A stretch of DNA of 36,483 nucleotides from Reclinomonas americana ATCC 50394 (GCA_048213135.1 PS015230.1:50347-86829), one strand, 5' to 3'. Shown: positions 5,853 through 36,483, counted from the stretch's first letter. Numbers and translations: made by a program. The notes: a model not told the origin generated them from the letters alone.

Positions 5853-8800
5853 TCACACAAATTTCTTGTACAAGCACGAAGTGATGGTGTGCTCCGAGCT
5901 GCCAATGTCGACAGCCACACAAAACGGCCCGTTTCCGATGCCCTCGTACGCCTATGATGGAGGTCAGTGACATTCTCATCGCGACGCAAGCAGATACACA
6001 CACGAGCACACACCAGTCCCAAGTCCTCGGAGTTGAGGAAGAACCGGACCGTACCCTGGTCCACATTGACCAGCACACCCACTCGATCGCCAGGCGAATA
6101 TGCCCGACCGTATTTGACCACCTCACCGGCATGGCGCCGCACACCGTCACTATTGTAGCCTGCATCCCATACACAGATTCAGCAACAGCAGGAAAAACAA
6201 CACAATTTTTGTGGACGACAACGACCACGCACCCCAGCTCATCTGGTCGGCTCCCAAGAAACCCTGCAGGTTGCATCGATTCGCAATGCAGAGACCCACC
6301 GACACCGACAGCGGCTTTGTCGGTGCCTCAACCGCATACTCGGCGTACCACACGCCATACGAGAATACGGACTCGCTGCAGGCCACCGATCGCCCGTTGC
6401 GCCCACGCCCCAACACCGACAGACCATCGCTCTGCGAGGTGAAAGCACATGCAGTCAGTCGTCAGTCAAGTGCGACGCGAGTGTCGCGATCGAGACGCAA
6501 CAGACAGCTTGGCAAAGGTTCCCAGTTGACGTGGATTAAAGGGCAGGCACTCGGCGCCGTTGCGGGCGCCACGAGCCAGCGCCAGAGTCGTCGACACCAG
6601 GTCCTTGAAGGCGGCCTCGGCACGCAGTCGAGTCGTCTCCACCGATCTGTGTGTATGCACACACGTGAGCAGACAGGCACAACAGTTTTTCGATTGGAAT
6701 AGGTTTAGACGCAACGCAGGTGCCTTGGGCGGCATGTCGGCTGCCGCCGTGCTCGATGAAGATACCAGCGAGCGCACGGGTCTGACGGGTGCCGCCGCGT
6801 TTGGCGGTGGCGGTACAAGGCTGCGGGCGCCTCCTGCAGGCGGTTTTGTGCGCAACATCGCCTCCAGACGCTCCATCAACTGCGCGTCACGCTGCGGACT
6901 GCCCACCGTGTCGACATCTTCACCAATCATGGTCACCTCGCTTGCCATCACTGTGGGTGAGCCCGGGAGTTGTGGAAGCTGCGGTGGCGGCGGCGGAGTC
7001 GGTGGTGACGGCGACTTGGTGACCGTTGTTGTCGTTGTCGTCGCCGGAGGTACCGGCGAAGCACGACGCGATGGTGGCTTGGCTGACGATGGACGTGCCG
7101 GCGATGGTGGAGCCGGTGGATCCAACAGGTCGGAGGGGAACTGCAGGTGCACGGAGTGAGATTGGAGGCTAAGGGGGAGAGAGAGAAGATATCGGCATTT
7201 CTTCACCAGCGGATTCTGGCGCAGCGCGGTGACCGTCGAGGCCGGCATCTCCGCGTATGTGATGGTCGCAAAGAGGCCACGGCGCGTCGGTTCATCCAGT
7301 GTCTGCTGGTGCAGCTGTACGTAGCGGAGCACAATCTGCAGCTTCTTGTCCTGCACGCTCTGCGGTTGTGGGCGGTCACTGCGCAGAGTTCGTCGCCTGC
7401 ATCACGAAATGGTGAGAAGGGCGACGAGAATAGGTGCAGCAAGAAGGCAGACGGCACTCACAGGACATCCGCCGAGAGCGCATTGACAAAGGCCACATTC
7501 TCGCGCTCGTTCATCACATCGTGTGCCCCCGGCGCCGCATTCAGATCGCGCAACATGGCCTCCTGCACAATTTGCGACCGGCAAACGCTGCTGGCGTACA
7601 GCAACATCAGCGCAACATCGGCCCCAAACGGCGGCGTCACGCCGTCGCCTCGTTCCTCTGCACAAGCACGCAGAGAGAAGTCAGACTTCCTGCAACGAAA
7701 ACTGAACTACACAGGCTACGCACCAGACACACTCGACACCAGCTGCTCGAGCTCCTCGCGACTGACAGAGGCCAACGACGAGTCGGCCCACTTGGATCGC
7801 AGCACAGTGACCAGCGCACGCTCGCAGTCCACACGAGGAGGTCGTGGATGCTGACGGAAGACCTGACACATGTCGACCACGGAAAGCACGCTGCCGAGAC
7901 GGCGATCGTGCCAGAACGACGACAGACGGCGACCGACTGCCGCAAACGCCGCCGAACGAAGCTCGTTCTGCGGCGGCTGCAGACGTGCTACCTGCGACAG
8001 GAGCTGCAGCGGATCGGCAGTGCCGGAATCGAGCGCACGCAGCAGCAGCGTTCGGATGCGTGCAACCGCCTCCGGGCACACCAGTTGCTCCGCCAGTATG
8101 AGCAGCGGAACGTACACGTCGGCAAGTCGCGTGTCAAACTGCGAGAAGAGGACAACACAATGTGAGGGAGTCGCTCACAACAAGTGAAGCAGCACAAGCA
8201 GCTTCGCTCACCTCTTGCAGGCCGGCAAGCGACTCGGCATCGATGCTCTGCAGCAGCAGCGGGAACACGCCGGATGTGTCGCGAATGTCCTCGGGCAAAC
8301 GAACAGTCGCAGGCGGGGAGCGTGCGTCTGAACCCACCAGTTTCGCCACGCGTGCACTGTGCTTCACCAGAAACTTGCGATTGGCTTTGAAGCTCTGCTC
8401 CGTCAACTCTGTGTCAGATGGGCAGGGTGAGTTTGCAGGGTGACAAACAACCGGATACTGCGTGGCGCTCGACTCACCGCCGCGGCTTCCACCACCAGCC
8501 ACCACCGTCAGCACGGTAATCTCCAGAGAACCGTCGTCGACCCGAGTAACCTCCACTGGCCGCGGCGACGAGGACACGGAAACCGCCGCCGATGGCGCCG
8601 TGGATACCGCCGGCGTCCTCGCCGGTGCCTCCGACCGAGGGCTGGCCACCACACTGGCCGCCGAGATGTCGCCCCGACTGCTGGCCGCCGCACTCGCCGG
8701 CGCCGACTTCTCCACCGACTGCAACGTCGGGAGGTCGTCGACCGACGGGGCACGCTGCACAGCTGCGACAGCGTCCACACTCTCCACATTGCCGCCGCGA

Positions 8801-11297
8801 TTGGCCGGCGGACGCGACAGACTGCGCCGGAATTCGCTGGGCGTGCCGCTGCTCGGCGGCTTCGGTCCACTTGGCGTGTCGGCCTTGCCGCCAATCTCAT
8901 CCACATCGTCGAGCACCAGCACCGCATCCGGCGGCATCGCCGTCGCCGTTGGTGACAACACAGTCGGCCGTGATTCGCGCCGATTCACCGTGACTGTGGC
9001 GGGAGCGACGCCACTGGCGGTGCGAGCCGCCACCGGCGAGTGAGCCGCGCTGTTGTGCGGAGAGGCAGTGGCCGAGGTCACGGTACTCGGTGTTGGCGGT
9101 TGTGACCGTACCATGGGCTCGACGCGCGACACTGGCAGCGGAGTGGCAGCGGCAGGCGACGCGGGAGCGGCACGGACCGGCGAGGCAGCGGCGGAAGACT
9201 TGGCGGACGACGAGTTCGGTTCGACCTTCACAGTGGTCGCAGGCGGCACCGGAGTCTGGCTGGCCGCTGCCAGGGCGAGAACCAAAGGTTCGTCGTGCAC
9301 GGCCGGCGTCTTTGGGGATGCGGCCGGTGAGGCCTGTCGTGGCGAAGCAGGCTTCGCACTTGCCTGCGCCGACGATGATCCGCGAAGCACAGCCACGCGC
9401 GGCGACAATGACGGCGATGCCGACGAGTCATCGTTGTGAACAATCACCGCCGCCGCCGCCGCAGCAGCAGCAGCTCCTGATTTACTGGACGGCGTTGCGG
9501 GCTGCAATAAACAAACACGAAGGGTGGAAAACAGTGAGAACGGCTGCTGAAAGAAGCGAGGAGGAGGCGCGGCACGGACTCAACTGTCACCACACGCGGA
9601 GAGGCAGGCTCCGACAGATGCGACAAGTCGAGCGACGAGGACGACGAGTCGGCAATACTTGGCGTCCGTGGCGACTGTTTGCTGGCCATGTTGTTGGCTG
9701 GCGATTGCGAGCTGGGAGATGCCGCAATGTCGACCGACGCCGCTGGGGGAACATCCGCAGCCGCGTTGCCGTCGGCAGAAAAGTGCACTGTCCGCGGACT
9801 GAGCACTTGCCGTGTCGACGGCGGCGTCAGCTGCGGTGCACTCGAGTGTGACGAATCGGTGACGGAGGGCTGTGAGCGCGGCGAGTCGTTCGTCATTGTG
9901 CCATTGGTGAGGCGCTCGTGAATCGCCGCAGCCACGGCCGAGGCGGTGACGTTGGAGTTCGCCGCCGCCGCCGCCGCCTGCTTGTCCACCAACTGCTGCG
10001 CCTGTGTCGGTGACAACTTGGCAGCAGCAGCAGCAGCAATGCCGGCCGCAGGAGGTGGTGAGTGCGAGTGACCGCGCGAGACAGGCACCGACGATGCCAC
10101 AGAGCCAGGCCGCGACTCTGGCCACCGTTTCCGATCAAAGGGCAGCGGCGTGCGTACATGCGTCAGCTTGCCGAGGCTCCGCGGGCTGTTGGTCGCCTCA
10201 CTCGGTGATGGCGTCGACACCAGCGACGCCGTCGACAGTTCGCCAGAGTTGATGAGACGCGGACTGCCGGGCAGCGAAGACAGACCCGACACAGCGGCCT
10301 CGCCAGGTCGACCGCGAGGGGTGTTGGGCAGCGAGATCGCGCCGACTTGCACGCCGCTGCTGCCACTGATCTTGGCCACTGCCGGTTGCACCGGCTGCGG
10401 CGGTGGCGGCGGTGGCGGTGGCGGCGGTGGTGGAGGCGGCGGCGGCGGGGACGGCAAGCGAGACGGTGGCGCCTCGAGACCGATAGCCTCGCTGTTTGGT
10501 GTGTGCGGATCAGACGGAGGCGGCGGTACCGACTTGGGTGGCTCGCTTGGCGCCGACCGAATCGACGACATGCCGTCGGCGCCCGATTCGAGAACTGGCA
10601 GCTCACGAGGCTGGCGCGGACTCACTGGTGCCGAGGCCGCCAGCGGATCCACGACAGCGCCACGATTGCGCGGTGATGCGGGAGCAGAGACAACCGATTC
10701 GGGAGGCGGTGCGGTGGGCAGGGAGGCCTTGAACGCCGCACTCCGCAACGGGGTCGGCGACGGCAGATTCTCCGTGCGAGTCAGTGTCATGGACGAGGCC
10801 GTCAGCAGCGGATCGTCGTCGATTGCCGCAGACGACGGTGCTCGACCCATCTCCTCCGCGACGCCGTCGCCAGACACCGCCGCCACCACCACCTCCTCCT
10901 GTTCAGCCGCCTGCTCTTCCTCGCCGCCAACAGCACCTTCCACTAGTGTTGCCGGCGCTGTTACTCCATTGTCGCTGTCGACCGTGTCGCCGCCATTCAT
11001 CTCCGGTTCGCCAGCAGCACCGCCATTGAGCGACGATGCCGATGCCGCGGCGGCAGCGGCCGAGTCGTACTCTTCCACTTGGTCTGCGAACGACACGGAG
11101 CGCGGCGCCTCGTCGTTGCCGCTGACACCTGAGCCGCCCATCACCACCGCCGAGAATGGTCGCTTGTTGACACCGCCGGCCAACATGGCCGCATTGGCAC
11201 CGGCGTTGGCAGGCGTGTTGGCCGAGTCTACGGCAGCACCAGCACCGTCGCTGGACATTGCGCCAGCCGCCGCCGCCGCCGCTGCAGTGGCAGCAGC
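5853..11297 (-). CDS. Large Pro/Ser/Ala-rich protein with a BTB/BACK-like region and C-terminal SPRY domain (probably the 3' part of one gene extending to ~15406)
   Basis: Spliced C-terminus KLSSDGLSVLGRG...FSYGVWYAEYAV...VSVGLC...GFLGADQMSWGYNSDG...YGRAYSPGDRVGVLVNVDQGTVRFFLNSEDLGLAYEGI is SPRY-like. SFKANRKFLVKHSARV..LLILAEQLVCPEAV is BTB-like (weaker). About 10 phase-consistent introns. TGA 5855-5853. Confidence 0.8.
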
Positions 11298-11324
11298 NNN
11301 NNNNNNNNNNNNNNNNNNNNNNNN

Positions 11325-14300
11325 TGATCGTGATGGCGTCCTGTGAGCACGCAAGCAAAAGGGTGAGACAGTGATATCCACCAGCCTTCTTCTCCTGTGA
11401 GACTCACCATCGGGATCGGCTGGAGGGACGATCATAAATCACAGGCGCATGATCCAAGTCGCCAGCCGCATCGCCGGCCGCCAAGTGACTCGTGCGCCAC
11501 GGAGTACCGTCGCCGCCACCGCGCCCATCACGCGACGAGTGAGAGAGCGGGGTGATGACACGCTCATCGTCGTCGTCGTCACCATCGGCGACCATCTCCG
11601 TGGACGCGTCGGTGCCCGAGTCGACCGACTCGGCCGTCTCCGCCAGCGACTCAAAGTGCTCGAGTGGCGGAATGGACAGATCGAGTGGTGGTGGTGGCTC
11701 GTCGTCGTCCGGCGGCGCCACCATGAGCCCAGCTTGCCGTTGTCGGCGACGTAATTGCTCCTGTTGCATGGCCTGCACCTCGGCCGCGGCAGCAGCCACC
11801 GCAGCAATCTCCATGTCCATCTCGGCGGGCGACAGCAGCGCTTCGGGTGGTGGCAGAGGTCGCGAGGCGGGTGTGGCACGAGGCTTGAGACTCGAGTGAC
11901 TCGGTGCCACCGGCAGCGCCGGGTCACGAACCGTGGGCGGTGTTGGTTCGGCGGTGGTTCGTGGTGGTCGCTTGAAGGCTGGCGCGTCGGGCCCGTAGCT
12001 CCGCGGCGAGTCGATGCCAATGGAAAATGCAGCTTGCCGCCGTCGGTCGACTGCGTAGGGGAGTTGAGTGGGATACAAATGAAAGAGAATGAATGGTGAG
12101 AAATGAAATGCACGCAACAAGCTTCGCCACCAGTCGGCGTGCCACCTGCTCCACCATTGTCCCTGCCGACCGTACCATCTGCATTTCTGTCACTCCCGAA
12201 TCTGTTCTCCTGATCTCCACCGGCTGTCGGCGATGTCACATTGCCAACGGCGGCCAGCGACAATGGTGTGCCGGCCGACGACAGCGGTGAGCCGAATCGC
12301 GGCAACGAAAGCGGTTCGACACCCGCCGCCGACGCATCACGGACAGACGTTCGTGACGGCAGTCGCGGCAACAGCGCTGTCGACGACTGCGATGGTGGTT
12401 GCTGTGGTGGTTGTGGTGGCGGCGCACCAGTTTCCTCGTCGTACGCCTTCATGGCTGCATCGTGCACGGATCCACTCTCAAATTCAAACGTGGCCGGTGC
12501 GCCGAGAGCGGCGAATTCGTCAAGCAGTCTGAGGAGAGCATCAGCGACAAGTTAGTGCGTGCATGCGTGGCAGGGAGAAGAGAACGAGCGGCGGTGGTTT
12601 TCGCAACTTGCTTCGCTCAATCAAGCACCGAAAGGCGGCCTCCACCACGTACGGAGTGGCGGTGGCAAAGGTGATGCGAAAATCGGAAACGCGAATGTCC
12701 CACACGGTGAGGTATTTGGTCGCCTCGTCCACTTCGACTCGCAGGTCGCGGTGTATGGGGTTGGTGTGCGACAACTGGCGGGCCTTACGCGGCTTCGACG
12801 GACCGCAGCACCACCACGGCGCCACCTCCGAGGCCAGGAGGAGAGGGCTCTCCCAGAACGCGAATGTCGAGTCACCGCCCACACGCAACTCGGCCGGGAA
12901 TTCTTCCACGACCCGACCACCGTCGTAGAAAAACACGGTGGTCTCGCAGCAAAAGCCCTCGGCCACGTACTGCTTGAGCAGTGCGTAGTCGGCAGGGCGC
13001 AAGTGGCGTCGATTCACTCGCACCGGTAGTGGTGGAGGCCCCTCCAACGTCAGGTGGCGGCGTCCAAAAGACAGCGGCTGCGGGGTCGTTGACTCGGCCG
13101 TGTCGGCAAAGCGCACCACACTCCCGCTGCGGAACTGCGACGATGTCGGTCGTCGCGACATGCCGCCACCACTGGGTGACGCCGACGCAGGCGGAAACAT
13201 GGCCGTAGTCGCTGGTGAACCGGACCGATAGGAGCGTGGAACCAGCTGCGTCCCCGGACCCGACGACGGTAATGGTGGGCCTTGCTGCTGCTGCTGCTGC
13301 TGCTGCGGGCGTGAATGCTGCTGTGGCGGGGGCGGTGGTGGTGGTGGAGGTGCAGGCTGCATTGATGCGTGTCGATAGGTGCGCTCGTGTTCGAGGGGTG
13401 GATGTTGCAGCGGAGGATGTTGTGGTGCCCGCAGCAGTTGCTGCTGATAGTCACCGCCGTCGATGCCGGGTGTGTCGGCGGCTGGTGAGGCGACCGGGGC
13501 GCTGCCGGCGCGCAGAACAACGGCCTGTGCAGATGAAGAAAGTGAGCAAGAATGCGCAACATGAATGAGTTCTCCCCCACACGCGCGCTCACCCTCGGCT
13601 GCTGCGTCGGATTCGGTGTCGAATGCACAGGGCCGTGCACTCGCGGCGTCGGTCGATTGACACGAGCATGGTACGCTTCCGCGGCCTCCCGACGAGCGCG
13701 ATCGGCAGCCTCCTCCTGCTCCTGCCGCTGCTTCGCCTCCTGCTCCTCATTCAGCCTCTGCTGCAGCGCGTGTCGCTGGGCGAGCTTTTCGCGCAGCGAC
13801 GTCGTTCCCACGCCAGCAGCAGCAGCGATTCCCACACCAGCGCCACTGCCCGGTGTCGACACCGACATTGGCGACGCCGTCGCCTCACCCTCCGTGTCCG
13901 ACGACGGCAACGGCACGACGACCAGCGGCCGCGGTGCCGGCGAAATGCTCTGATCCCGACTGCTCACCGCCGTGTTACTGGCCGGTGTCTGCGCCGCTGC
14001 CATGGTCGACGAATGCCGGAACTTGGTCGACTCCAGCGGCGGATTCATCAGCACCGAAGCCGCCACCGTCGCCGGCGATGGCGTCACTTGCCCCGACGAC
14101 GGCGATCGATGCACCTGAAAAAAAAAACACCAGCGCTCAATCGATGCATTCACTTGCTCGACCCGGCGCATGCACATACCTTGCCACTGCGATTCGGCGG
14201 CGGTGGTGTCGGCGATCCGAGCACCGGCGACGCATCGGGTGGCGGTGGTGTCGTGCCCGCCGGCAATCGCATTCTCCAGCTCGCCTGCGCCGCCTGCTTC

Positions 14301-15406: not shown

Positions 15407-15477
15407 GGCATCCTCATCTCGATGCGAATCGATCTTGTCTTTGGGCACTTGTGTAGGTTCCGCGCACCAGTGCGAGT

Positions 15478-16468
15478 ATGGTGAGCCGCGAGCTGCGTGT
15501 GGGCCTCAAGGAGGTCTCACTGCATGATCGTAAGCGACACGCGCTTGATTCGGTGCGTGCACCTGTCTCTCCCAGACTGTCTCTCTGTTCTCTCTGATGT
15601 TGCTCGTGTGCAGTTGCGTGCGCACTTCCGAGCGCGTGTGGAGCAAGACCGTCGGCGCTTTGTGCAGCATGCGAGAGAGCGACGCCGTCGCTCGACGGAG
15701 AGCGGCATGCAGATGGAGACGGATGACTTTTTGCTGGAGTTCATGCAGGGAGCCAAGGCGCAAGGTCTCGTCCTTCTCTCCACCTCCTCTCCTTTGTTTG
15801 TCGTGGTGGGTGACGTTGTCTCGCAGAGTTGATGCAGGGCCTGTCGGCGGAGATGGAGACGGAGCTCATGTTGCAGCTCGAGGCGGAGGTCCTCGAGGAG
15901 ATGCAGGCGATGGAGCGGGAGCGGGAGCAGCAGATGGTGGAGGAGTACGAGTTGGCGGCGGAGATGGAACGCATGCGTATTGACGAGGCGGTGAAGGACA
16001 TGTTTGACACCACCACCCCGGATGTGGTGCGTTGTGCAGTGTGCACGAGTTGTTGTCGATAGTGGTTGCTCATTTGTTTTGGTTGGCAGGTCGTGTGCCC
16101 CGTGTGCACGCGCAATCCGGTGATGCAAGACGGCAGTCGATTGTTTTGCGCGTGCGGGTGGCGCATCAACACGGGAGTTTCGTGTGCTTTGTTGGCGTGC
16201 CCCCTCCGTTCTTGAGTCTCATGATTTCCCCTCAGATCGGCCCCGTGTCACTCGATGGTCTGCAGCGACAGCTCGTGACGGCGTATCACGCCCATGCGTT
16301 GCGTCTTGCTCCCTCCGACTTCGCCCCCTAACCCCCGTCCTCACCACTCCACACACACACAGCTCCGCGTGCCCGGCCACACCGTCGTTCGGCGTGGATC
16401 GAGGCATGGGCACCGAGTTCCTCGTTCTCCGATGCACACAGTGTGGAGCATTCGAAATCGTGGTGTGA
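15478..16468 (+). CDS. RPAIN: RPA-interacting protein (RIP/RPAIN) homologue
   Basis: Six exons. N-terminal LRAHFRARVEQDRRRFV, an acidic middle (ELMLQLEAEVLEE...EEYE), VVCPVCTRNPV..FCACG, and C-terminal HA..CPATPSF....LVLRCTQCGAFEIVV* match the RPAIN architecture. Confidence 0.85.
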
Positions 16469-16532
16469 ACACACCAAATCGTCACAAATATATTATTGTA
16501 CAGGAACGCTCATGATACAGTCACATGTTCTC

Positions 16533-18709
16533 TCAAATGGTGCTGGTGAGGAACTTGTACGACTGGTGAGCCGTCGGTGACCCGGCGCTTCTGCCGCTCT
16601 TTGTTTGGCCCAAAAAGGTGACAAGTGTGTCGGCGGCCACCACCTGCGTTTGTGGGGGTGAGCAAGCAGCAGAGGAACTATATGGATTGGCAGGCACACA
16701 CACACACAGACCAAATCATCTGCCTTCTCCGCCCACTTGTCGGGGCTTGTGAGGATTTTCTTGGTCAGGAAGAGAATGTCTGGGCGCACGCGAAGTGAGT
16801 CGACACGTGCAAATCCCTTGTCATCCTCCATCCACCTCCCTACCTTCATCGGTCTTGGTGGCCTCCGGGAGGGCATGCACGCGCTCCACCAAATCGTCCA
16901 GTNNNNNNNNNNNNNNNNNNNNNNNNNNNNNNNNNNNNNNNNNNNNNNNNNNNNNNNNNNNNNNNNNNNNNNNNNNNNNNNNNNNNNNNNNNNNNNNNNN
17001 NNNNNNNNNNNNNNNNNNNNNNNNNNNNNNNNNNNNNNNNNNNNNNNNNNNNNNNNNNNNNNNNNNNNNNNNNAGTAAAGGGATGTAAGGGGAAGGGAGG
17101 AGGGAGGAAGGGAGAGGGGAAGGGGGGAAAGGGATAAAGGGAGGAAGGGGGAAGAGAGGCAGGGGAAGGGGGAAGAGAGGAAGGGGAAGGGGGAGGAAAG
17201 GGGGAATGAAGGAAACGGGAAATGTGCCTCTCTCTCCGAGGAGACGCGAAGAAAAGAATCAGCAAGTGGAGAAAGAGACGTGCTTCAAACGAGGAAGGTG
17301 ACAATGCGCGCAATCAAGCTCTTCACGCGATCTCATCCTGCGTGAGAAAGAAATGCAGGCAAGGTCATGATCGCCACTCCATGGACAAACCCATGTCCTC
17401 ACTTCGATGTGCTGGAAGACATCGAGAGGAAAGAGGCAAAGCGAGAAAAAAAAAGGAGACGAAAGCGAAAGAGAAAAGACAAGAACGAGACGCCTCGCCT
17501 GGTCGCTTAGCAGGGAGTGAGAGAGAAGGGCAATGGCAACTCACTACGCGAATCTGTTCTTGTGTGCGCGAGAGAGACAAATTCGTGGCGCGCAGGAGCC
17601 ATGTCACGCTCTTCTTTCAGTCTCGAGTCCCACACACACACGCACCTTCATCTCCATATAACAGTTCAGATTGTACAAGTGAATCCAGCAGGCTGCCACC
17701 TGCCCCAGAATCGCCTTTCGCTCGTCCATCGAAAGCTAGCGGAGAGAGACAAGGTGAGCAATCTTGCATACGCGCGTTGACACCGAGCACAAGCAGTGCG
17801 CACTTGATCCTTGGTGCTGAGGTACTCCTCCAACGTCAAGCCGCCCCGCTCGACGACAATGTACCACCGCCCAGTGTCCTCGTCAAAGAACTTGTCAAGC
17901 AGGTTGGCCACCCACTTGGAGCGCAGCAGGCGGTACACCTCAACGTGACTGAAAAAAGAGAGGCAGCAAAAGGTGAGAAACGAGTGGAGAGATGCGCAGT
18001 GAGAGATACAGATAGTGCAAGGTAGGTGAGAGCAGTGCGGAGAGAGATCTCAGTGAGCGACACACGGTGATTAGCAAGTGATCAGTGCAGGAGGAACCCG
18101 GTGATAGATGAGTAAGACGCAGATGGTGAGCTGTTAGATCAGTGAGAAAGATACGCAGTGAGAGATCAGTGAGTGTGGCACACAGCGATCAGTGTGTGGT
18201 GAGTGTGAGAGCAGNNNNNNNNNNNNNNNNNNNNNNNNNNNNNNNNNNNNNNNNNNNNNNNNNNNNNNNNNNNNNNNNNNNNNNNNNNNNNNNNNNNNNN
18301 NNNNNNNNNNNNNNNNNNNNNNNNNNNNNNNNNNNNNNNNNNNNNNNNNNNNNNNNNNNNNNNNNNNNNNNNNNNNNNNNNNNNNNNNNNNNNNNNNNNN
18401 NNNNNNNNNNNNNNNNNNNNNNNNNNNNNNNNNNNNNNNNNNNNNNNNNNNNNNNNNNNNNNNNNNNNNNNNNNNNNNNNNNNNNNNNNNNNNNNNNNNN
18501 NNNNNNNNNNNNNNNNNNNNNNNNNNNNNNNNNNNNNNNNNNNNNNNNNNNNNNNNNNNNNNNNNNNNNNNNNNNNNNNNNNNNNNNNNNNNNNNNNNNN
18601 NNNNNNNNNNNNNNNNNNNNNNNNNNNNNNNNNNNNNNNNNNNNNNNNNNNNNNNNNNNNNNNNNNNNNNNNNNNNNNNNNNNNNNNNNNNNNNNNNNNN
18701 NNNNNNNNN

Positions 18710-22977: not shown

Positions 22978-23012
<35 letters not shown>

Positions 23013-24171: not shown

Positions 24172-26209
24172 ATGAGCGACGAACACGGTCTGGAGTCGGT
24201 GGACGACGAGGCCAACATGAGCGAGGGCGCGATGTCCATGTCACTCCCTCCGCCCCCGCCTCTGCCGCCGCCACCGCCACCCACTGTGAGCATCAGTGAG
24301 GAAGGCACAGTCACATTGTCGATCACCGCTGCCGTCAATCCGTTCGAGGTGAGCTGCTTGCTTTGTCGACAGTGATGATGATGATGGCGAGTGGCTCGCT
24401 CGCTCGCTCGCTCGCGCTGGGCGAGCAACACGCGCATTTGCTGCGGCAAACCCCCCTCGCGCCCCAATTGAACCTCCACCTACTCCTCTGTCTCTGTGTG
24501 GTGTGCGCCACGCGTGTTTTCTTTTCGAGTGCGCGTGTCTCGTGTGTTTGGTGTCATTGGCGCTTCTCTGTGTGTGCGCATTGTGAGAGCATTTCCCGCC
24601 AAATTGTGCGTTTCCACTTTGAGTTTGCTCATTGGTTGTCGTCGCAGCCGCAGCGCAAGAGGCCACTGGAGGCCGATGGCAGTGCACGGTCCAATTCGCC
24701 GCCTGCTGTGCGGCAGCGGCATAGCATGTCGCCGACACAACAACAGGCGCAACAGGAGGAGCCGAATGCTGCTGCTGCTGCGGCGGCGGCGGCTGCTGCA
24801 GTAGCACAGCTGCTTCCTGCGCAAATAGACGCGGCGGCGCTTCTGAACGACCCGAACCTGCTGGCGGCGCTGGGGAATTTGCCGCCGAGCATGTTTGCCG
24901 GACCGGAAATGGAGCAATTGCTGGCGGCACTGGCGGCCTCGACGTCACCGGCCACGTTCCAGGAGATGTTGAGCAACAGCAGTGCGTTCTTGCAGCCGCT
25001 GGGAGCGCCTGGTGGCAATCCAATGGCGGCAGCGGCAGCAGCGGCGGCAGCGGCGGCGGCTGCTGCGCTCAAGTCACCGGGCACGCCCGGCAGTGGTGGT
25101 CTCGGTGGCATGTTCCCCGGCAGTGGCGGGCTGAACGAGGACTCGGGCTCGGGTGATGGCGACAGTGGACGCAAGTCGCGTGGACGCTGCACGTACTACC
25201 CGTGCGAGTTCCCCGGCTGCACCAAGGTGTTTACGCGCTCGTTCAATTTGCGGCGGCATGTGGACACGGCGCATCGCGGTGTCACCTATCCGTGTTTGGT
25301 GGAGGGCTGCACCAAGGTGTTTACCGACGTCTCGCATCGGCGCTCTCACGAGAAGAATGCGCACGCGGATGTTGCGTCTCCCCATCCTACTACTTCTACT
25401 CCCTCCTTCGCACACTCACTTTCCCTTTTGGCAGTTGTTCTCTCCCTCGGCTGGGAGCTCACGACGCCGGCAGAGCGACGCTGGCGCACAACAGCAACTG
25501 ATGCAGGGCATGCCATCGCTGGAATCGGAGACGGCCAATCTGTTGGCCATGCAGCAGGCGCTGCAGTCGCTGGATCCTGCGCAGTTTGCCGCTCTCGCCA
25601 ATGTCGATCTCAACTCGCTGCTCCTCTCCACGGTCGCCGGCACATTCCCGCCCGAGCTGCAGTCGCTGCTGGCCGGCCAGCTCAACATCCCCGCCGAGAT
25701 GGTGGCCGGCATGTTGGCACCTCCGCCGCCACCTCCGCCACCGCCGCCGCCGCCACTGCCACCGAGTGACAGCGACATGCCGGCCGCCGAGGACATGAGC
25801 TCCTCGTCGCCGGCCACAACAACAACGACACCCACAGCCGAGTTGTTGCTGGGCGGTGACCCTAATGCCGCCAGCAGCTCCATCGATGCAGCCTCTGGTG
25901 CGTGCTTGTAAAACCTTCGAAATAACCAGAAGACCCACGGACTTTGCTGACGGTGGTACGCGCGATGCAGTCATTCCACCGTCGCTCCCCATGATGCCCT
26001 CGTCAACCGTCTCCTCCGGACTCTCCATGGACCCCATGCTGCTGATGCCGACCATGATGGGCAAGTCGGCGGAACCAACACGGCCCCTCAACCAATCCGT
26101 CATTGTCTCTCAGGCGGTGGGCATTGCCGATGCCAACCTGCCTCCACTGCGCCCAGAGATGCAATGTGCACTCTCCGTGGCTCCACTGCCCTCTGCCGAC
26201 ACTGTCTAA
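24172..26209 (+). CDS. C2H2 zinc-finger transcription factor (two fingers) with Ala/Pro/Gln-rich regions
   Basis: Fingers YPCEFPGCTKVFTRSFNLRRHVDTAH and YPCLVEGCTKVFTDVSHRRSHEKNAH at ~25196-25364. Introns start at 24349, 25371 and 25898. TAA 26207-26209. Confidence 0.88.
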
Positions 26210-26280
26210 AGCGACGCTTGAAAGCAAGCAACAATGAATGAAAATTTACACTTTGATCATTGTTGTGTTGCTGCAGCGAC

Positions 26281-26983
26281 ATGGAGCGCGCACTGGCCGA
26301 TGTCGACAAGGGCCTGCGCAGTGCATCAGTGGAGACGCGATGTGCAGCAGTCGCACGCTGTGCACCTCTGATTGCTGCATTCCCACTGCCCTCACTCATC
26401 AACGCCACCATTCTGCGCCTGTCTGCGCTCTACAACTCGAGGCACGCACGCACACTCACACTTACACACGCAAGAGAGAGAGAGAGGGAACAGCATCATC
26501 ACTGACAACTGTGCATTTGTGATTTTTTTGCCTGCATGCAGCACCAACTTTCTTCGCTATTGGATTCTGAAGGTGTTTGAGAAAGTGGAGGCGCACATGG
26601 GCCGCCTTCTCAACCCCGAGACCGTGCTCTCACACGTGACTGCGTTGCTGGAGAGCAACGACTCCACTGCGCGGACTCTGACACTGCGCGTGCTGATCAC
26701 GATGCATGCACTGTTGCCGGCACGTGTGGACTTGCATCATCGCTTCTTGCGGCTGCTGGCGGCGCAGCAGAGTCAGGAACGCATTGCTGTGCTGGCACTG
26801 GTCGATCGACTGTGCGGGGATTCGCGAGAGTTTGCAGTGTCGGTGCTGCCGCGTGTGCTGGAGATGGTGCAGGCGACGGGCGCGACGGACTCGGAGACGC
26901 GTGTGCGCGCTGTGCATGTGCTGCGGCACTTCCACTTTGATNNNNNNNNNNNNNNNNNNNNTCTCTCGTCTTCCCTCTGTGTC

Positions 26984-27043
<60 letters not shown>

Positions 27044-29925
27044 TCCTCTCCCTCCCTTCCTTCCCATTGTGCCCTTCTCACTCTATCTCTCTCTCTCTCC
27101 CTCTTTACTTCCCCTTCGTCTCCCCCCAACAGGCACTGACCACCACGCTGCAACACGACAACACGCTCGTCGCCTCGCTGAGTTTGCGATTACTCGCCGA
27201 GTGCACCACTGGCGATCGCGACGATGCGTGGATTGTGACGCAGTGTGAGCGCTCACTGCTCCTGCTGGTGACCGACAGCACCGCGGCGAGTGGGTCCGAT
27301 GCTGTGGCAGAAGACGACGAGGACGCGAGACTAATGGATGTGGATGGCGATGCTGTTGATGGAGATGGCGCGGCGCCAGGCCGTGTGGCGAGTGGCAGCC
27401 GGCGCCGTCAGAAGACTGCTGGCGAGGAGGATGACGATGATGATGGCCGGCGATCATCGTCACAGTCTCGCCGGTTACAAGCCGTTCGGCATGTCGTCTC
27501 CACGTTGCAGTCCGTGCTCCAGTGCGTTGCCTTTTTTCGTCTCCCACTCTCTTTCCATATTCCATCTGCTCACATTATGATTATGTGGGGCAGACGCGGC
27601 GTGCAGGATTCTTCGCTGCATGCCGACGTGCTGCGAATCATCGTGTCGAGTCTTGTCACTAGTCTGAAAGGTTCACCCGCATTGTCAGTGTACTCTTCGT
27701 CTCTCCATCTGTCTCACTCCGTATCTGCAGAGTCCACCACTGTGGCCCTACACCATGTGTTCTCTGAAGCACTGCTGCGCGCCGGAATCGTATCCGTGGC
27801 AGAGCAGCGCGTGAACGACGATTTGCTGTGCACCCTCGTGGCCGCCGTGTGCGACCGGCCGTGCGTGACCCGCGAGGCGGAGACTGTATTTGTTGCGTGC
27901 CTTCCCTCCGTCGCACACGCCTCGCCTTTTAGTCGCTCACTCACCCGCCTTTTCCAAAGTATCAAGCGTGTCGCTTTGCGCTGCGCACGAGTTCGCGTGG
28001 CGAGCACGCGCCAGTGGCGTTGGCGGTGTGTGACGCCGGCCGAAGATTACTCGACAGCGGCGACTCCTGGCGTGTGTACATGCTGGTACGCGAGTGTGTC
28101 TGCGAGGGATTTGTTGGACCGGCTGCCGAGCTCTTGCGTGGCGTGGTGGAGAAGAAGGCATGTGCCTCTCATCCCGTCGATCACACGACTCTCTGTTCTG
28201 CCCGTGCCTCCACTCACACTGCGTGGGTGCGCAGGTCGAGTCGGAAATCGTACTGGCCTGGATGACGTGCCTGATGCACTTGTGCTCCTTCGAGCAGGAG
28301 GTGGAACGAGCGGCGGAGTCAGCTGGCGAGTGGAGTCTGCTCGACAGCGCGCACCACCTGCTGCGCGCACAAGAACAGCTGCATGTGAGCTTTCTTCACC
28401 CTCGTGATCTCTCGCGCAGCTACATTGCTCATGGTGCATAACGCAGGTGTGCCGCCCGTCGACCGACGGGTTGCGATTCCAGAAGCGGTTTGTGGAGATC
28501 TACGGCGACGTGTGTCTCACGCTGGCGGGTATCCACGCACAGCTCGGCAGCCTGCTCAATCATCCGCTGAGTGATCGTCTGTGGATGGTGGACGAGTGCG
28601 TGGCCTCGAGTGCCGGCTGGAAGGACCAAGTGGCCACTCTGCGAGACCGATTCGCTGCGCTCTCGGCTGGCTTTGTCGACATGGATGCCGTGTCGGTGGT
28701 GTGCCTGCAGACGTTGCGTGATTCCAAGTGGGTTTTCTTCAGTTTCTTCTTTTTGCTGAAGCGAGTGGTCGACACAGGTGGGAGTCGGCGTTGGATCTGG
28801 TGTGGAGAATGGTGTCGTTTGTCGAGGCACGAGCTCACGAGTTGCGTGCATGCCTCGCTGAGTTGTGTTTCCCAGCTGCATGCTGACTGTCGATACCAGT
28901 GGAGTGACTGGGGTGCTGACGTTGTACGAGCGTCTGGTGGTTCCCGACGCCCCGCTCTTTGCCGACACACTGCCCCTGCGCCACGTGGCACCCGCCGAGG
29001 CGGTTGCTGAGTTGGTGTCGCTCGTGCAACTCGGAATCCCGGAGCAGTTGAGGGCGCTGGCGGACCCACAGGTGAGAGTCTCTTGGTGGCGATTCGTTGC
29101 AGTTTGTCGCTCATCCACCATGCAACAAAAAGGATGAACTGGCATGTGCTGTGGAAGCCTTGGAGGCGGTCATTGCGCGTGTACAATGTCTCGGCATTCG
29201 CCTGCCAAGATACTTGCTCGTCACGGCACCACGGGCCGCCGTCAAGGTGCGCCTCCCGTGTGTGTGCTCCAATCAGTAGTAAGCATGGTGTATGACCCTT
29301 TTCCTCCCCTCCCGCCCAGCTTGACGTCAGTCCCAAGCCGAGAAAGAACAAACCATCGGCAGCGGTCGATGTGCATGCCATCTTCCCGCTGCACGTCTCC
29401 GGGGTGGTTGAGGGACCAGCGCGAAGTTGCGGGCTCATCACACGTAGTACTGCATCGACAGCAGTCTCACTTTTTCTCTCTCCCTGCCCCTCTGCCGCAG
29501 GTGTGGCGCAAGTGGAGCACGTTGAGCTGCGCGTCAATGTGGAGAACTCGTCGATTCCGCCCGCTGCGCTGCCACCACCACAGCGCTTCTTCCTGGCTGT
29601 GTCGCCCGACGACCACAGCTTCTCCCAGTCGTGCCCTCTGACGCTGTCCGTGGTCGGCGAGTACACGGTGGTGGTATGGGTGCTGGTGGCGGGGGCGCAC
29701 GAATCGAGTGTGTCGTCGTCGCAGGTGAGTCGCGCGCGCCTCCTGCTCACTTCCCCCCGACACTCACTTTTTTGTGCACAGCCGAGCAATCGCGAAGGAT
29801 TGTTGGACTTTGTGCGGACCACGGACGAGTGGCCAGAGACCGGTCGTGTGTTTGCGCACGGCATTCGCAAGCACCCACTCGTCGTCCATCGCACTCGCCT
29901 CTCTGTGCAACCCAAGGGCTCATAA
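26281..29925 (+). CDS. INTS7: Integrator complex subunit 7 homologue
   Basis: N-terminus ALADVDKGLRS..RCAAVARCAPLIAAFPLPSLINATILRLSALYNSSTNFLRYWILKVF..SNDSTARTLTLRVL matches the INTS7 N-terminal pattern. Later LPRYLLVTAPRAAVKLDVSPKP precedes a beta-rich C-terminus. About 12 introns. TAA 29923-29925. Confidence 0.88.
26984..27040. repeat. (CT)n microsatellite in an INTS7 intron
   Basis: Direct reading of the sequence. Confidence 0.9.
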
Positions 29926-30013
29926 ACTTCGCATAACACTAGTTCATTGCGTGCTCCGTCACGGTCAGTCAACGGGAGAAAAGAGAGGGAGGGAGGGATG
30001 GCGTGCACAGGGC

Positions 30014-30343
30014 TCATGAGAGGCCGCGGCCTCTTCGCAACTTGACGAACGCTGCAATGGCCAGGCACGCGCTCAGACCAAGCCTGCGGGCCCAAATGTG
30101 TGAGTGGCGACGATAATTGTCACGACAGTGTGTGCACGCACCAGGTGGTAGCATAGATGAGATGCTTGGTGGGCGACACGTAAAAGTCGGTGAACTCATC
30201 CGGCGACTTGAGGTACGGCAGCGAGCCGACACGCGGCGCCTGAATGGCATCTGCCACACACAAAACAGTCAGCAAACTCGCCTCGCTGCTGTTTTGCGAA
30301 GAACAAAAAAACGCAACCAACAAACAACTCCAGCTGCTTCGGC
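30014..30343 (-). CDS. SURF1: SURF1/Shy1 cytochrome c oxidase assembly factor, 3' end (5' part in the gap)
   Basis: Spliced LFVDAIQ...VSPTKHLIYATTWLGLSACLAIAAFVKLRRG* has the H-L-x-Y-x-x-T-W motif followed by the terminal transmembrane helix typical of SURF1. Intron donors at 30317 and 30141. Confidence 0.75.
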
Positions 30344-30725
30344 NNNNNNNNNNNNNNNNNNNNNNNNNNNNNNNNNNNNNNNNNNNNNNNNNNNNNNNNN
30401 NNNNNNNNNNNNNNNNNNNNNNNNNNNNNNNNNNNNNNNNNNNNNNNNNNNNNNNNNNNNNNNNNNNNNNNNNNNNNNNNNNNNNNNNNNNNNNNNNNNN
30501 NNNNNNNNNNNNNNNNNNNNNNNNNNNNNNNNNNNNNNNNNNNNNNNNNNNNNNNNNNNNNNNNNNNNNNNNNNNNNNNNNNNNNNNNNNNNNNNNNNNN
30601 NNNNNNNNNNNNNNNNNNNNNNNNNNNNNNNNNNNNNNNNNNNNNNNTGATTGATCGACTCTTTGGATGTCTTCTTGACGTCGTTCTTGTGTATTCGACT
30701 TGCCCCCGATGCCCCACCATTCGCC

Positions 30726-31957
30726 TCACAAGTGACAGTGGTCGCGCATACGATGCACAAAGTGCACGAGGTTCGGGAACTCCAGAACGCGCTTGTGCAG
30801 CGGATCGTCGAGGTACGAGGCCTCGGAGACCAGCTGTGCGAGGTAGCCAAAGGCGACTGCGTCGGCCGTGGTCGGGCCCGGCTGGCCGAGGAAGAACTCC
30901 TTGTCGGCCAGTGTGGCGGAGAAAGCGTCAATATCGGCAATCATCTGTGCGTGCCAGTTGTTGTCGTCAGTTTTCTGAAACAGGCGGGGAAAAAGGCAAT
31001 GCTGCACGAGCGCGTACCGACGACCAGAACCTGTCCTCCGTGTTGTTCATGTCACCGCAGTGTGACAGCTTGTTGTATAGGCGGCGTCGCTTCCACCGCG
31101 ACATGACGGTGGCCGTAATCGCCGCCATGCGCGGGCGGAACAGGTGCTCCTTCATCACGTCCTGTCACCAGATGAGAACGGAGAACCTACACCAAGGGGA
31201 GAGGGAGAGGCACGCAACAAAGGCCTCGGGGACCATATATCTGGAAAATTGGAGGCCTCGCCGCAAGTGATCCTGTGCAACACAACACGCGGCCGATGAG
31301 TGAGAGTGAGAGTGAAGAGAAAATTCTTTCCCGCTGACACGGAAGAACCTCGCAGGTGCGATAGATAAAGTGAGAGACGGCCTTTTGTGTCGGCAACAGG
31401 TTGGCGTCGGGATTGAGATCGGGGAACTCGTGGCGCAAGAACTCCATAATGGCCTCCGTGTCGCCAATGGCGCGGTCGTTGAGCACGATGAACGGCAGTG
31501 TCAGTGTCGGGCTGACGCGTGTGGTCATAATCTCCCTGTGTGCGGAGAATTGAGTGTCAAAGTCGAGACTAGATAGAACGCACTGGGGTGGAGAAGAGGA
31601 GGAGGGACGCAACACAGGCTCGTACGGAATGCGACTCATGGAGAGCCACGCCATGAGGGCGAGGCACGAGGGTGACACGGAACCAGGAATATCAAAAAGC
31701 GGGGGCATCACAAACACGTACAGCAAGTCGCGCCGGAAACAGCCACGCTGTGGTATTCACTCTGTTCAGTGCAAGGGCACACACGCACACACGCGCGCAC
31801 TCACCGCCCGCGCAAACTCGACAGCTTCGGCACTCTGCGCACGGAATTCTTCGTGGCTGGTGCCGCGCGGCGGCGGCAGAATGAACAGACGGTAGATCAC
31901 CATGGCGGTCAGGGCAATCAACCACGGCGCCAGGAACACCACCCACATGGTGATCAT
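30726..31957 (-). CDS. FAX/metaxin-like glutathione S-transferase-family protein with an N-terminal hydrophobic anchor
   Basis: Motifs SVSPSCLALMAWLSMSRIPYE, SPTLTLPFIVLNDRAIGDTEAIMEFL and DIDAFSATLADKEFFLGQPGPTTADAVAFGYLAQL...FPNLVHFVHRMR. Five phase-consistent introns. Confidence 0.85.
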
Positions 31958-32098
31958 GGTGGCGGGAGAGGGACGCGGGGAATCAGGGCTGGAGCGGCGG
32001 CGGCAGAGAGCGTGGATTGTCTGTGCGTACTCGGCAGCAGACAAACGACGGAGACGCTGGCGACACGCGGCTCCGCGTGGACGATGTGCTTTCTCCCG

Positions 32099-33458
32099 TC
32101 AGACAGAGGACGACGATTCTCCGCCACCACCATCATCGTTGTCGTCGTCGTCCTCCGGCAGCCAGTAGACGACGCGATTCTGGCCATCAAACGGCAGCGC
32201 GACCTGCCGGATGTCCGGATGCTTGGCCATGAGGAACTCGATCAGCTGCTCGGTCTCCACCACCGGCGCTCCGGTGGGTCCTCGCCGATGGGCAAACAAG
32301 TGCGGAAACACGCAGCACGGCAACACCGCAAACGGCCGGCGATGATCGAGCGCCCACTCCACAATGCCATCGGTGGCCTGATCCGGATGCATGCCCACGA
32401 GACACGAGCAGTCGGCCAACACCGCCTCCAGCTGCGCCGCCGAATCCGCCACCGCCGCCGCCGCCGACTGCAACGAGGCATCGCCGGCCAGCGAACCCGG
32501 CGGGTACTCGAAAATGGAGAGGATCTGTGGCGGTGGCTCCGCCGACTGCCGTCGCAGAGCACGCCGCTGATGCGAGCGAAGCACCCGCGGACGCTGCTTG
32601 CACGAGAGGTGAGGACACTCGCACGCACGACGCACTGCTCTCCTAAACGCCAACGCACCGGATCCACCAAGGTCGACGGAACGCCGTGACTCCACAACTC
32701 GAACGACACATCGCCTCGTCCTCCGGCGACATCCACCACTCCAGTGCCCCTCCGCAGCTTCACCACGCCCACACACTCCAGCAGCCAGTCGACAAAGACA
32801 CGTGCACGACGCGAATGATTCCACACTCCATCATCGTCACTTGCCGCCGATCGCGATGACCAGCGTTCCACGCGCGCAGCTGCCACGCGTTCCCGCCCGA
32901 TCACGCGACGTCGCTCGCGCCGCGCTGCCACCCACGTCGCACGCAACGCCGCACGCTCCTCTGCGTCCTGCACATGCCGCCGCGGACACGCCTCGTCGCC
33001 ACGCAAACACGAACCCGTCAACAAGTGAAACTTGCACAATCGATCATCATCATCGTCGTCGCAGTGGCGAGCAACAGCAACAATGTGTGCCGCATGCGTC
33101 GTCGTGGACAGTCGCTCGAGGTGAACGCAGCGGAGTTCATCATGCTCCGCCGCCCATGCGCCTCGCACGCGGATTTGATCTCCGCGACGCACCACACGAT
33201 GTGCAGTGTCCATGCACTCGGCATTGCACGTGTCGCTGCGACAGACGACCTCGACGAGGGAGGCATCGGGGGCGGAGAGCAGGTCGAGGAAGCAGAGCTT
33301 TTTGGAGAAGATGCGGTGGTGCACAATGATGCCCTCCTGTGTGGCGGAGTGAGTGAGAGAGAGAGTGAGAGAGAGAGAGAGAGTGAGTGAGAGCGAGGGA
33401 AGTGGAGGGTGATGAGTGAGGGCACGCACACCAGAGTGACGATATCGATGTCTCCCAT
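32099..33458 (-). CDS. OB-fold + CCCH zinc finger + SAM-dependent methyltransferase-like protein
   Basis: OB-like LEGIIVHHRIFSKKLCFLDL..RRGDQIRVRG. CCCH finger LCKFHLLTGSCLRGDEACPRRH. Motif I VVDVAGGRGDVSFEL..TLVDP, followed by LVGMHPDQATDGIVEWAL..PFAVLPCCVF. Two introns. Confidence 0.8.
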
Positions 33459-34729: not shown

Positions 34730-36483
34730 ATGGACCCTGACATGGGCGGCGGCGAAGAGGACTGTGGAGGCAGCGGCGGTGGCGAGTCATGCGCCACAAA
34801 TCGACGCATCACACGCAGAGAGGTAAGTTTTCCACGACCTGTTTCGACATCGACAACTATCGCATCTTGCACGCACTTTTTCACACATATATCTGCACAC
34901 CTACACGCACACACACACGCACTTGCACCCGCACTTCTCACTCTGTGCTGTGCATTTCCTGTGTCTGTGTGCTGTGGCGGCGAATCTGTTTGATAACCAC
35001 CTTCCAAAGGGAGATATATCACGCACCACGCTTAAAAGCAGAGGAAAAAATCGTGCCGCACAATTGGTCGTGCATTCCGTTGAGGTTTTCATATCACTGC
35101 ATCTTGGTGTTGTGCGTGTGGTCTTTGTTTTATATGCGCACATATCCCGCATCGTCTTTCCCCCTCCTTTGACGCACATGTACTCTCTCTTCCGTTTGGA
35201 GTTTTTAGCGAAACAATTCGACTCTCCGCCCTAACATTCGTGCGCACGCATAGACGGTCGTTCTGGAGGAGCAATTTCGCATCAACCCGTACCCGTCTCG
35301 AGCGCACAAGCAGATGCTGGCCGACCGCCTGTGTACGTCGTGGTGCGTGGTCGGATTCGTCCGTGTTTGTCAGAGGTCGCGTGGAGGACACTTGTCGTAT
35401 TCACTTTGTTCGGCTCTGTGCAAACACACATAAACAGGAAGGTGGTGAACGTGTGGATGCAAAACCGACGCGCGCGTGAGCGCAAGAACCTGCGGGTGCA
35501 CGGGCAGAGCCCACCGCAGAGGTTGCCGGCGCCGTCGTCGTCTTCGGGCAATTCCGAAGCCGACGATCGCGAGCTCAGCGACAACAGCGACACCAACGCG
35601 CCACTCCCGCCCCCACTGCCTCCGCGCGTGGTGCAGGCAATTGCAAGGGACAGCACATCCATGCGGAGCCAGGTGGCGCAACTGCAGGACAGGCATCATC
35701 GCGCCTCGCCACTGCAGATGCAGTTTCCGCAGCACGGACAACTTCCTCCTCCTGCTGCTGCTGCTCACCCACCTCCACCTCCACCGTACCATTACCCGGC
35801 GATATTGTGCCCACCAGCGCCGCCCGTGCCGCAGTCTCGACAGCAGTCACCGTCGCTATTCATGCCTGTGCACCCGGTATCTGGGTTCACATTTCCGACC
35901 GCGACACCGACACCCACCTCCTCGCTGTCGTCGTCCTCGCGGTCATCTCAGGCCGCCACTCCCACGTCAGTGTGCGACTGGCAAGACGCTGCCAGCTTGG
36001 CCAACCCCAACAGTAGCTACGCCGCCTACTTGCAGGCCGCCAGCCACGGTGGTGGACAAACCAGAAGGTATGTGAAAAGCGATTGGGTGGAAGACTCCGC
36101 GTGATTTTGCTTCTAATTTTGCTCCGTATTGTTATGTCAGCGTCCCCAACACTCCGCATGGCAGCGCTGCGTGGGCCGCTGCGGCGGCAGCGCTGATGGG
36201 CGCAACACCACCAACACCGTCGACAGCGAGCACATTGCAATCTGTATCTGCGGCGGCGGCGGGAAAGCAGTCTGCACCCTCGTGGAGAGTGCCACCACCG
36301 CAACCACCGCAACCACCACCACCACCACTGTCTGTGGGCGGCAAGGCGCATGGCGCACCCGCAATGACTGGCGCATGTGCGATGCCGGCGCCGTCTTTGC
36401 CACCTCCTCCACCACCGGCTGCGGTCTCCACCACCTCCTCCTCGTTCACATCGAGCAAGCTGCAACAACAACAATCGTCGGCA
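34730..36483 (+). CDS. Homeobox transcription factor (non-TALE, Q50); runs off the window
   Basis: Exons 34730-34822, 35254-35342, 35438-36067 and 36141 onward give RRITRRETVVLEEQFRINPYPSRAHKQMLADRLCTSWKVVNVWMQNRRARERK, with exact homeodomain spacing (L16, F20, Y25, P26, W48, N51, R53). Confidence 0.9.

Follow-up and report, generated by a model that had tools for sequence, protein, structure and literature searches.

GTTGCG introns that lack the exon-end G in a gene-dense window of Reclinomonas americana, and a tentative reading of their donor one base out of step with the cut

The G at intron position +5 and the G at position -1, the last base of the exon, are among the best-kept positions of eukaryotic splice donors. 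How, then, is a donor recognized when it offers a C at +5 and is seldom preceded by a G? The question is raised by a stretch of 36,483 bases from Reclinomonas americana ATCC 50394 (GCA_048213135.1, PS015230.1:50347-86829; the whole of it is called the window here), which is GC-rich (60% G+C outside its 12 runs of N), eukaryotic and densely packed with genes that have many short introns each. GTTGCG is the commonest donor in it, opening 19 of 55 introns, about a third. The loss of the exon-end G is confined to this class, which suggests that the start signal of GTTGCG introns is read in a register offset by one base from the cut.

Exon-end G across the donor classes

The window contains 166 GTGCG and 52 GTTGCG sites on its two strands, so the motif alone proves nothing and each donor needs independent support. 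Introns were rebuilt from spliced open reading frames and from the continuity of Pfam domains, and the -1 base was never used. The curated set comprises 55 supported or plausible short GT-AG or GC-AG introns in 14 gene models, with a median length of about 66 nt; one ambiguous and three weak sites were kept outside it. Both ends are resolved in 52 introns, of which 50 are GT-AG and 2 are GC-AG, and the remaining three have a GT donor and an acceptor that was not resolved.

An earlier note on this DNA had reported that G stands at -1 of most GTGCG donors and of few GTTGCG donors. All 16 coordinates that it listed carry the motif and the -1 base on the strand claimed (donors are named by the position of their first base): G precedes 12 GTGCG sites as well as the GTTGCG sites 23690 and 30317, and A precedes the two GTGCG exceptions, 17803 and 27522. 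Among its 14 GTGCG donors, nine are well supported (6232, 7723, 15553, 16027, 17803, 23328, 27522, 29247 and 35343), three are plausible (17645, 25898 and 30141), 32658 is ambiguous and 21658 is weak. Its count of 12 in 14 becomes 10 of 12 in the rebuilt set, or again 12 of 14 when the ambiguous and the weak site are included. For GTTGCG donors, 2 of 18 had been given without itemising the sites, and the rebuilt set has 2 of 19, again solely 23690 and 30317. These 19 are supported or plausible, and two further GTTGCG donors (931 and 19009) are weak. GTTGCG was rejected as a donor at 28470 and 23490, both exonic, and at 23274, which sits in the 3' end of an intron.

The association between the -1 G and donor class held among the introns of the window in every confidence tier. 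In the best tier, G precedes 7 of 9 GTGCG donors versus 1 of 15 GTTGCG donors (Fisher test, p = 7e-4); the counts are 10/12 versus 2/19 when plausible sites are added (p = 8e-5) and 12/14 versus 2/21 over all tiers (p = 8e-6). The contrast between these two classes is real, but it is better put as one between GTTGCG and every other donor. G is also found at -1 of 5 of 7 GTGAG donors, 3 of 4 GTT donors without a following GCG, and 12 of the 13 donors that remain. GTTGCG is the exceptional class, since the exon-end G is retained in every other one, and in 30 of the 36 non-GTTGCG donors overall (83%) versus 2 of 19 (p = 1.8e-7). The observation is thus confirmed, in a stronger form than the earlier note had stated.

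Comparison with sites that are not donors points the same way. Within modelled genes, GTGCG donors can be told from exonic GTGCG by the -1 G (10/11 vs 6/28, p = 1e-4), which is not so for GTTGCG donors and exonic GTTGCG (2/18 vs 1/10). At non-donor sites in general, G precedes 26 of 152 GTGCG and 6 of 31 GTTGCG motifs (19%). The -1 base of GTTGCG donors is T in seven, A in five, C in five and G in two, which makes it poor in G (2/19), like position -2 of the other 36 donors, where A, T, C and G occur 16, 9, 7 and 4 times (4/36). What does mark GTTGCG donors is T at +7, since GTTGCGT is found in 14 of 19 donors versus 2 of 10 exonic sites (p = 0.016). T follows GCG in 10 of 13 GTGCG donors as well, about 75% in each class. 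As a separate observation, position -2 of GTGCG donors most often holds T (6/13), and that of the other non-GTTGCG donors most often A.

Regarding their anatomy, the introns appear to be ordinary short U2-type GT-AG spliceosomal introns, and the GTTGCG ones look ordinary in all other respects. Their median length is 68 nt, compared with 65 nt for the others, and their composition is alike. In 42 of 52 introns, a branch motif CT[C/G]A[C/T] is present at a distance of 8-50 nt from the 3' end (16 of 18 GTTGCG introns and 26 of 34 others). Introner-like repeated introns were rejected, because GTTGCG intron bodies are no more alike than other pairs (mean local alignment score 8.1 within the class, 7.6-7.9 for other pairs). 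U12-type introns have an RTATCCTT donor and a TCCTTAAC-like branch site; this identity was also rejected, as the introns in question start with GTTGCG and share the CTSAY branch motif with the other introns. The cut G|TTGCG with shifted acceptors, which the earlier note had called less parsimonious, is improbable: the position just after the acceptor AG is unconstrained (T6, A6, C2, G4), and at the 23690 junction Asp-Thr-Glu-Asn results from the GT-AG cut, but on a codon reading a shifted cut would replace Glu with Gly. A Glu at this junction is conserved among NYN domains.

Over 49 introns in 12 gene models, phases 0, 1 and 2 number 6, 5 and 7 for GTTGCG, 5, 3 and 3 for GTGCG, and 15, 4 and 1 for the remaining donors. 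Retention of the 69-nt GTTGCGT intron at 6647-6715 (- strand) would keep the frame. The gene finder also proposed a 69-nt candidate at 8409-8477 (- strand), a multiple of three with no in-frame stop and outside the curated set, and low-complexity genes may hide more in-frame introns of this kind.

How the GTTGCG donor may be recognized

One-base-shifted recognition of GTTGCG(T) is, in our view, the best available explanation, although it faces real counter-evidence and we hold it tentatively, at somewhat short of an even chance. Recognition would rest on the intronic heptamer of the donor, in a register one base away from that of the cut. The first G of the intron would take the slot, opposite C9 of the U1 small nuclear RNA (snRNA), that the last G of the exon fills in other donors; the TGCGT core of GTTGCGT would line up with the TGCGT of G|GTGCGT; and cleavage would still fall at the sole GU that is available, presumably at the handover to U6 and U5. 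As an alignment of sequences, the shared motif G[G/T]TGCGT looks reasonable.

The standard U1 5' end is ACUUACCUG. Pairing was modelled with a human-type end, its sequence taken from Table 2 of PMC4856993. The introns, the motif classes and the loss of the -1 G in GTTGCG alone are shown by the window, whereas the pairing partner and the register are inferred. In the canonical register G|GTGCGTG is placed at -5.9 kcal/mol, and GTGCGTG without the -1 G at -2.4 kcal/mol; the strong preference of GTGCG donors for the exon-end G fits with this modelled gain of 3.5 kcal/mol. On the other hand, GTTGCGTG is placed at +2.8 kcal/mol in the canonical register, at +1.6 kcal/mol with one U bulged (-2.1 with the -1 G, a gain of 3.7) and at +0.8 kcal/mol when shifted by one (+1.0 with the -1 G, no gain). 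Indifference to the -1 base would be predicted by the shifted register only, which matches the counts. For GTTGCG this register beats the canonical one, yet it is unstable with a human-type U1, from which that of the host may differ.

Several results weigh against this explanation. The GTTGCG duplex is unstable in all three modelled registers, and the unconstrained optimum averages -1.15 kcal/mol for GTTGCG donors, compared with -5.3 for GTGCG and -9.1 for GTGAG; the U1 sequence used was itself an assumed partner. The curated set has no GTTGAG donor versus seven GTGAG donors, which is not expected from a general one-base shift, under which GTTGAGT would be the better partner for U1 than GTTGCGT. 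The share of G at -1 of GTTGCG donors is at the background of non-donor sites, not below it (2/19 vs 19%, p = 0.27), and only marginally below the 5.6 in 18 expected from codon position (p = 0.04). Moreover, the -2 base of GTTGCG donors (A7, G6, T5, C1) is unlike the -3 base of the others (C11, A10, G10, T5). It should also be noted that the statistics come from a single 36-kb window, a small sample, that all junctions are predicted from frame and domain continuity at the DNA level, and that a motif bonus helped to choose among in-frame alternative donors. Of the proposal of one motif cut in two registers, the alignment, the shared T and the G-poor -1 position stand, but a stable duplex with human-type U1 and the GTTGAG donors are missing.

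The same instability in every register and the same lack of GTTGAG donors would be accommodated by a lineage-specific snRNA change, in which U1 or a second U1 variant is directly complementary to GUUGCGU. The long intronic helix would then make the exon-end G unnecessary, and the other donors would use conventional U1 or out-of-step pairing. We consider this unlikely. The conservation of the GTTGCGT heptamer and its specificity to donors speak for it; human variant U1 snRNAs are known, according to PMC3561869 and PMC10870369, and a similar change was raised by Irimia and Roy for the GTGCGTG donors of Ostreococcus, where, in the passage concerned, a single spliceosome was deemed likelier (PMC2483917). 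The other 36 donors speak against it, as they fit conventional U1 not only in their -1 G but also in G at +5 and T at +6, both of them frequent. An Rfam search of the window returned zero families, snRNA genes included. It also seems rather unlikely that one major spliceosome works in two recognition modes, a conventional one that uses the exon-end G and another that reads GUUGCGU in about a third of introns, be it by means of an snRNA whose 5' end is altered or dedicated to the task, or through a fixed one-base-shifted register.

The remaining readings are less compatible with the counts. If the +1 G and +2 U paired as usual and one U were bulged, the same GCGU pairs as in GTGCGT would be restored, and a +2/+3 bulge is described as a validated human register in the part of PMC4856993 that deals with it. 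However, since the -1 G would still pair with C9, worth about 3.7 kcal/mol, it should be enriched, and the 2/19 of GTTGCG donors against 30/36 elsewhere make the bulge quite improbable. A historical origin, in which an old wave of intron gain brought a complete donor independent of an AG|G-like insertion site, or binding of the heptamer by a protein or by U6 or U5 without U1, would agree with the even phases of GTTGCG introns, the remaining non-GTGCG donors being mostly in phase 0 (15/20), and PMC4856993 cites a human intron that is naturally independent of U1. Nevertheless, the intron bodies show no family likeness and the conservation of the heptamer implies recognition today, so that this pair of ideas is improbable. 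Finally, the contrast could be suspected to be an artefact, either of the way introns were called or of the small sample, in view of junctions that rest on DNA-level models, the motif bonus in donor placement, the ambiguous site and the three weak ones, and the unreliability of a self-trained gene finder. It is nonetheless very improbable: frames stay open over 11, 7, 5, 5, 5 and 4 consecutive introns, Pfam profiles run on across junctions, the contrast is present in every confidence tier, and the donors outside the named classes have the -1 G in 12 of 13 cases although this base played no part in the calling.

Gene models and features of the window

The INTS7-like gene was the first to be parsed by hand and the NYN gene was the second hand-verified model. 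An intron score from composition only gave no discrimination and a self-trained finder was unreliable; therefore, a dynamic-programming gene finder was trained on these two verified genes and its proposals for the remaining models were checked by hand, each by splicing and translation. The finder used codon usage, intron composition, a branch-motif bonus and a bonus for GTGCG, GTTGCG and GTGAG donors, and no exonic positions. The motif bonus may have inflated the class sizes, but it cannot by itself create the difference at -1.

Removal of 11 introns from the INTS7-like gene (27522 to 29781) leaves a single open frame of 2,061 bases with a stop at its end, and the exon upstream of the hand-parsed part encodes INTS7_N. 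The NYN gene has five complete introns, plus a sixth donor whose intron is interrupted by a gap. Open frames also extend across seven introns in the C-terminal part of the SPRY gene, four in the large gene next to it, five each in the RPA-interacting protein gene and the metaxin-like gene, three in the DUF1295-like gene, two plus two in the Kelch gene and two in the zinc-finger gene. Pfam continuity over junctions is found for the homeodomain, RPA_interact_C, SPRY, NYN and INTS7_N. The homeobox intron 35343-35437 is fixed to the codon by two independent Pfam alignments, exon 1 stopping at profile position 40 and exon 2 beginning at 42, with one split codon between them. RPA_interact_C positions 1-27 fall on exon 4 and 50-79 on exon 6, and the 20-residue exon 5 fits the interval within one residue.

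In the gene at 17074-18214 (- strand), which holds the donors 17803 and 17645, no continuation was found beyond 17645; the gene might go on with a 9-nt micro-exon and then a GTGAGG donor. The weak site 21658 may simply precede a stop codon. The middle part of the DUF1295 gene lies on the - strand, between the gaps 1625-2585 and 2961-2980, and its apparent N- and C-terminal parts (1075-1624 and 2981-3161) lie on the + strand; hence the small contig with 2588-2959 has probably been scaffolded the wrong way round. Searches with two other exons returned no relative, the DUF1295 exon has only distant ones in the protein collection (47-49% identity for the best), and no metagenome locus carrying the INTS7_N exon was confirmed. 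Several gap edges (e.g. 22978-23040 and 26962-27110) and 18765-19000 (- strand) carry repeated CTCTCAC/CACTGATCTCTCAC-like units and long runs of CT dinucleotides. The GTGCG sites 18864 and 18943, 79 nt apart, share the same 8-nt upstream and 12-nt downstream context.

Table 1. Introns, donor sites and Pfam domains of the window (positions counted from its first base)
Feature	Positions	Strand	Base at -1	Remark
GTTGCG intron	1118..1191	+	A	DUF1295-like gene; spliced frame open
GTTGCGT intron	4378..4452	+	T	Kelch gene
GTTGCGT intron (plausible)	4928..5006	+	C	Kelch gene; short exon before gap
GTTGCGT intron (plausible)	6647..6715	-	C	69 nt, multiple of three, stop-free
GTTGCGT intron	6432..6501	-	T	within SPRY domain
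GTTGCGA intron	12529..12607	-	A	
GTTGCGT intron	12051..12118	-	T	
GTTGCGT intron	16298..16362	+	C	RPA-interacting protein gene
GTTGCGA intron	23624..23690	-	G	exception; NYN gene
GTTGCGC intron	23070..23147	-	A	NYN gene
GTTGCGT donor only (plausible)	23012..23018	-	C	intron enters gap
GTTGCGT intron	25371..25434	+	T	C2H2 zinc-finger gene
GTTGCGT intron	27892..27959	+	T	INTS7-like gene
GTTGCGT intron	28713..28777	+	C	INTS7-like gene
GTTGCGT intron	28841..28899	+	A	INTS7-like gene
GTTGCGG intron	29426..29500	+	A	INTS7-like gene
GTTGCGT intron (plausible)	30251..30317	-	G	exception; small tail-anchored protein gene
GTTGCGT intron	31536..31613	-	T	GST_N_4/metaxin-like gene; acceptor 31536 or 31569, one donor
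GTTGCGT intron	31162..31218	-	T	metaxin-like gene
GTTGCGT candidate intron (low confidence)	843..931	-	A	
GTTGCGT site, probably exonic	19003..19009	-	T	read-through protein-like
GTGCGT intron	6160..6232	-	G	within SPRY domain
GTGCGT intron	7658..7723	-	G	
GTGCGT intron	15553..15613	+	G	
GTGCGT intron	16027..16089	+	G	removal restores RPA_interact_C zinc ribbon
GTGCGC intron	17736..17803	-	A	exception
GTGCGT donor (plausible)	17639..17645	-	G	acceptor not resolved
GTGCGG candidate donor (low confidence)	21658..21664	+	G	no acceptor before gap
GTGCGC intron	23264..23328	-	G	NYN gene
GTGCGT intron (plausible)	25898..25970	+	G	
GTGCGT intron	27522..27593	+	A	exception
GTGCGC intron	29247..29319	+	G	
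GTGCGT intron (plausible)	30084..30141	-	G	
GTGCGT intron (ambiguous)	32567..32658	-	G	rival GTGCGT donor 32628 (-1 C), in frame and as good
GTGCGT intron	35343..35437	+	G	homeodomain gene
Control intron GTCTCT	1231..1297	+	G	
Control intron GTACAC	1388..1467	+	G	
Control intron GTCAGT	3362..3432	+	G	
Control intron GTCAGC	3843..3911	+	G	
Control intron GTGCCG	9502..9575	-	C	
Control intron GTGAGC	8139..8211	-	G	
Control intron GTGAGT	7397..7461	-	T	
Control intron GTGTGT	5952..6013	-	G	
Control intron GTATGT	14115..14179	-	G	
Control intron GTGAGC	13525..13592	-	G	
Control intron GTCTCG	15765..15826	+	G	
Control intron GTTTCG	16177..16235	+	A	
Control intron GTATTG (plausible)	21473..21537	+	G	
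Control intron GTACGC	23796..23848	-	G	
Control intron GTTTGC	23385..23461	-	G	
Control GC-AG intron GCACGC (likely)	26442..26541	+	G	INTS7-like gene
Control intron GTTCAC	27671..27730	+	G	
Control GC-AG intron GCATGT (likely)	28158..28234	+	G	INTS7-like gene; in-frame GT donor 28143 alternative
Control intron GTGAGC	28385..28446	+	T	
Control intron GTGAGA	29072..29132	+	G	
Control intron GTGAGT	29725..29781	+	G	
Control intron GTGAGT	31748..31804	-	G	
Control intron GTTCTT	31273..31348	-	G	
Control intron GTACGC (plausible)	30975..31017	-	G	43 nt
DUF1295	2588-2959	-		Pfam, E = 4e-29
Kelch	4315-5013	+		Pfam
SPRY	6014-6157	-		Pfam
RPA_interact_C	16090-16465	+		Pfam
NYN	23150-23263	-		Pfam
C2H2 fingers	24300-25766	+		Pfam
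INTS7_N	26543-26941	+		Pfam, E = 1e-28
GST_N_4/metaxin-like	31190-31756	-		Pfam
Homeodomain	35254-35560	+		Pfam

Comparison with known systems

Exonic and intronic parts of a 5' splice site can compensate for each other, the -1 G mattering most when intronic pairing is imperfect. The GTGCG class behaves in this way, keeping its -1 G next to an imperfect C at +4. GTTGCG does not: canonically the weakest, it should need the -1 G most and has it least.

Open-access full text was searched for GTTGCG and GUUGCG, alone or with splice terms, and returned primers and unrelated matches, with no printed description of the donor class. The GTGCG class resembles the introns of Mamiellophyceae, with a GTGCGT donor, a -1 G and a CTGAC-type branch motif. 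For Ostreococcus, PMC2483917 describes atypical GTGCGT(G) donors together with a branch motif of the CTGAC type, and for Micromonas, PMC3879977 describes an AG|GTGCGT donor with the branch motif NCTGAC. Unlike here, GTTGCG does not appear in the passages around GTGCGT in these two papers, whose texts were not searched for GTTGCG. The window does not belong to one of these algae, as close relatives of its proteins are absent from the protein collection (49% identity at best).

The closest parallels to the proposed register are human. According to the relevant part of Tan et al. 2016 (PMC4856993), a shifted (+1) register between 5' splice site and U1 was described for rare human donors by Roca and Krainer in 2009, bulge registers also occur, the +2/+3 one (Roca et al. 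2012) with 68 predicted human sites in its Table 3, and validated non-canonical registers make up about 1.5% of human donors; the same source describes U1 bound away from the cut, with U6 then setting the cleavage site. A GUU donor that regains downstream complementarity to U1 when one U is looped out recalls the +2/+3 bulge, but that register predicts a retained -1 G. The likeness to the shifted (+1) register would be greater: the pairs would be moved by one position, the +1 G would occupy the slot of the -1 G, the cut would stay at the GU, and GTTGCG donors do not depend on the -1 G (2/19 vs 30/36). The differences are that the human register is a rare exception and here it would serve the largest donor class, that the human core is of the consensus UAAGU type and the core here is UGCGU, and that here the modelled duplex is unstable with human-type U1 and the register is proposed from sequence.

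If this explanation is true, a genome in which the commonest donor combines C at +5 with U at +3 and lacks the -1 G would show that out-of-step or variant-snRNA recognition can serve as a main route and not just as a rare exception, and the host would offer a natural system in which the place of U1 binding is separated from the place of the cut. Gene finders whose donor models rely on fixed positions (-3 to +6) would overlook a third of the introns or put them in the wrong place. Confirmed genome-wide, out-of-step donor recognition would become a major class, in a register already known from rare human donors.

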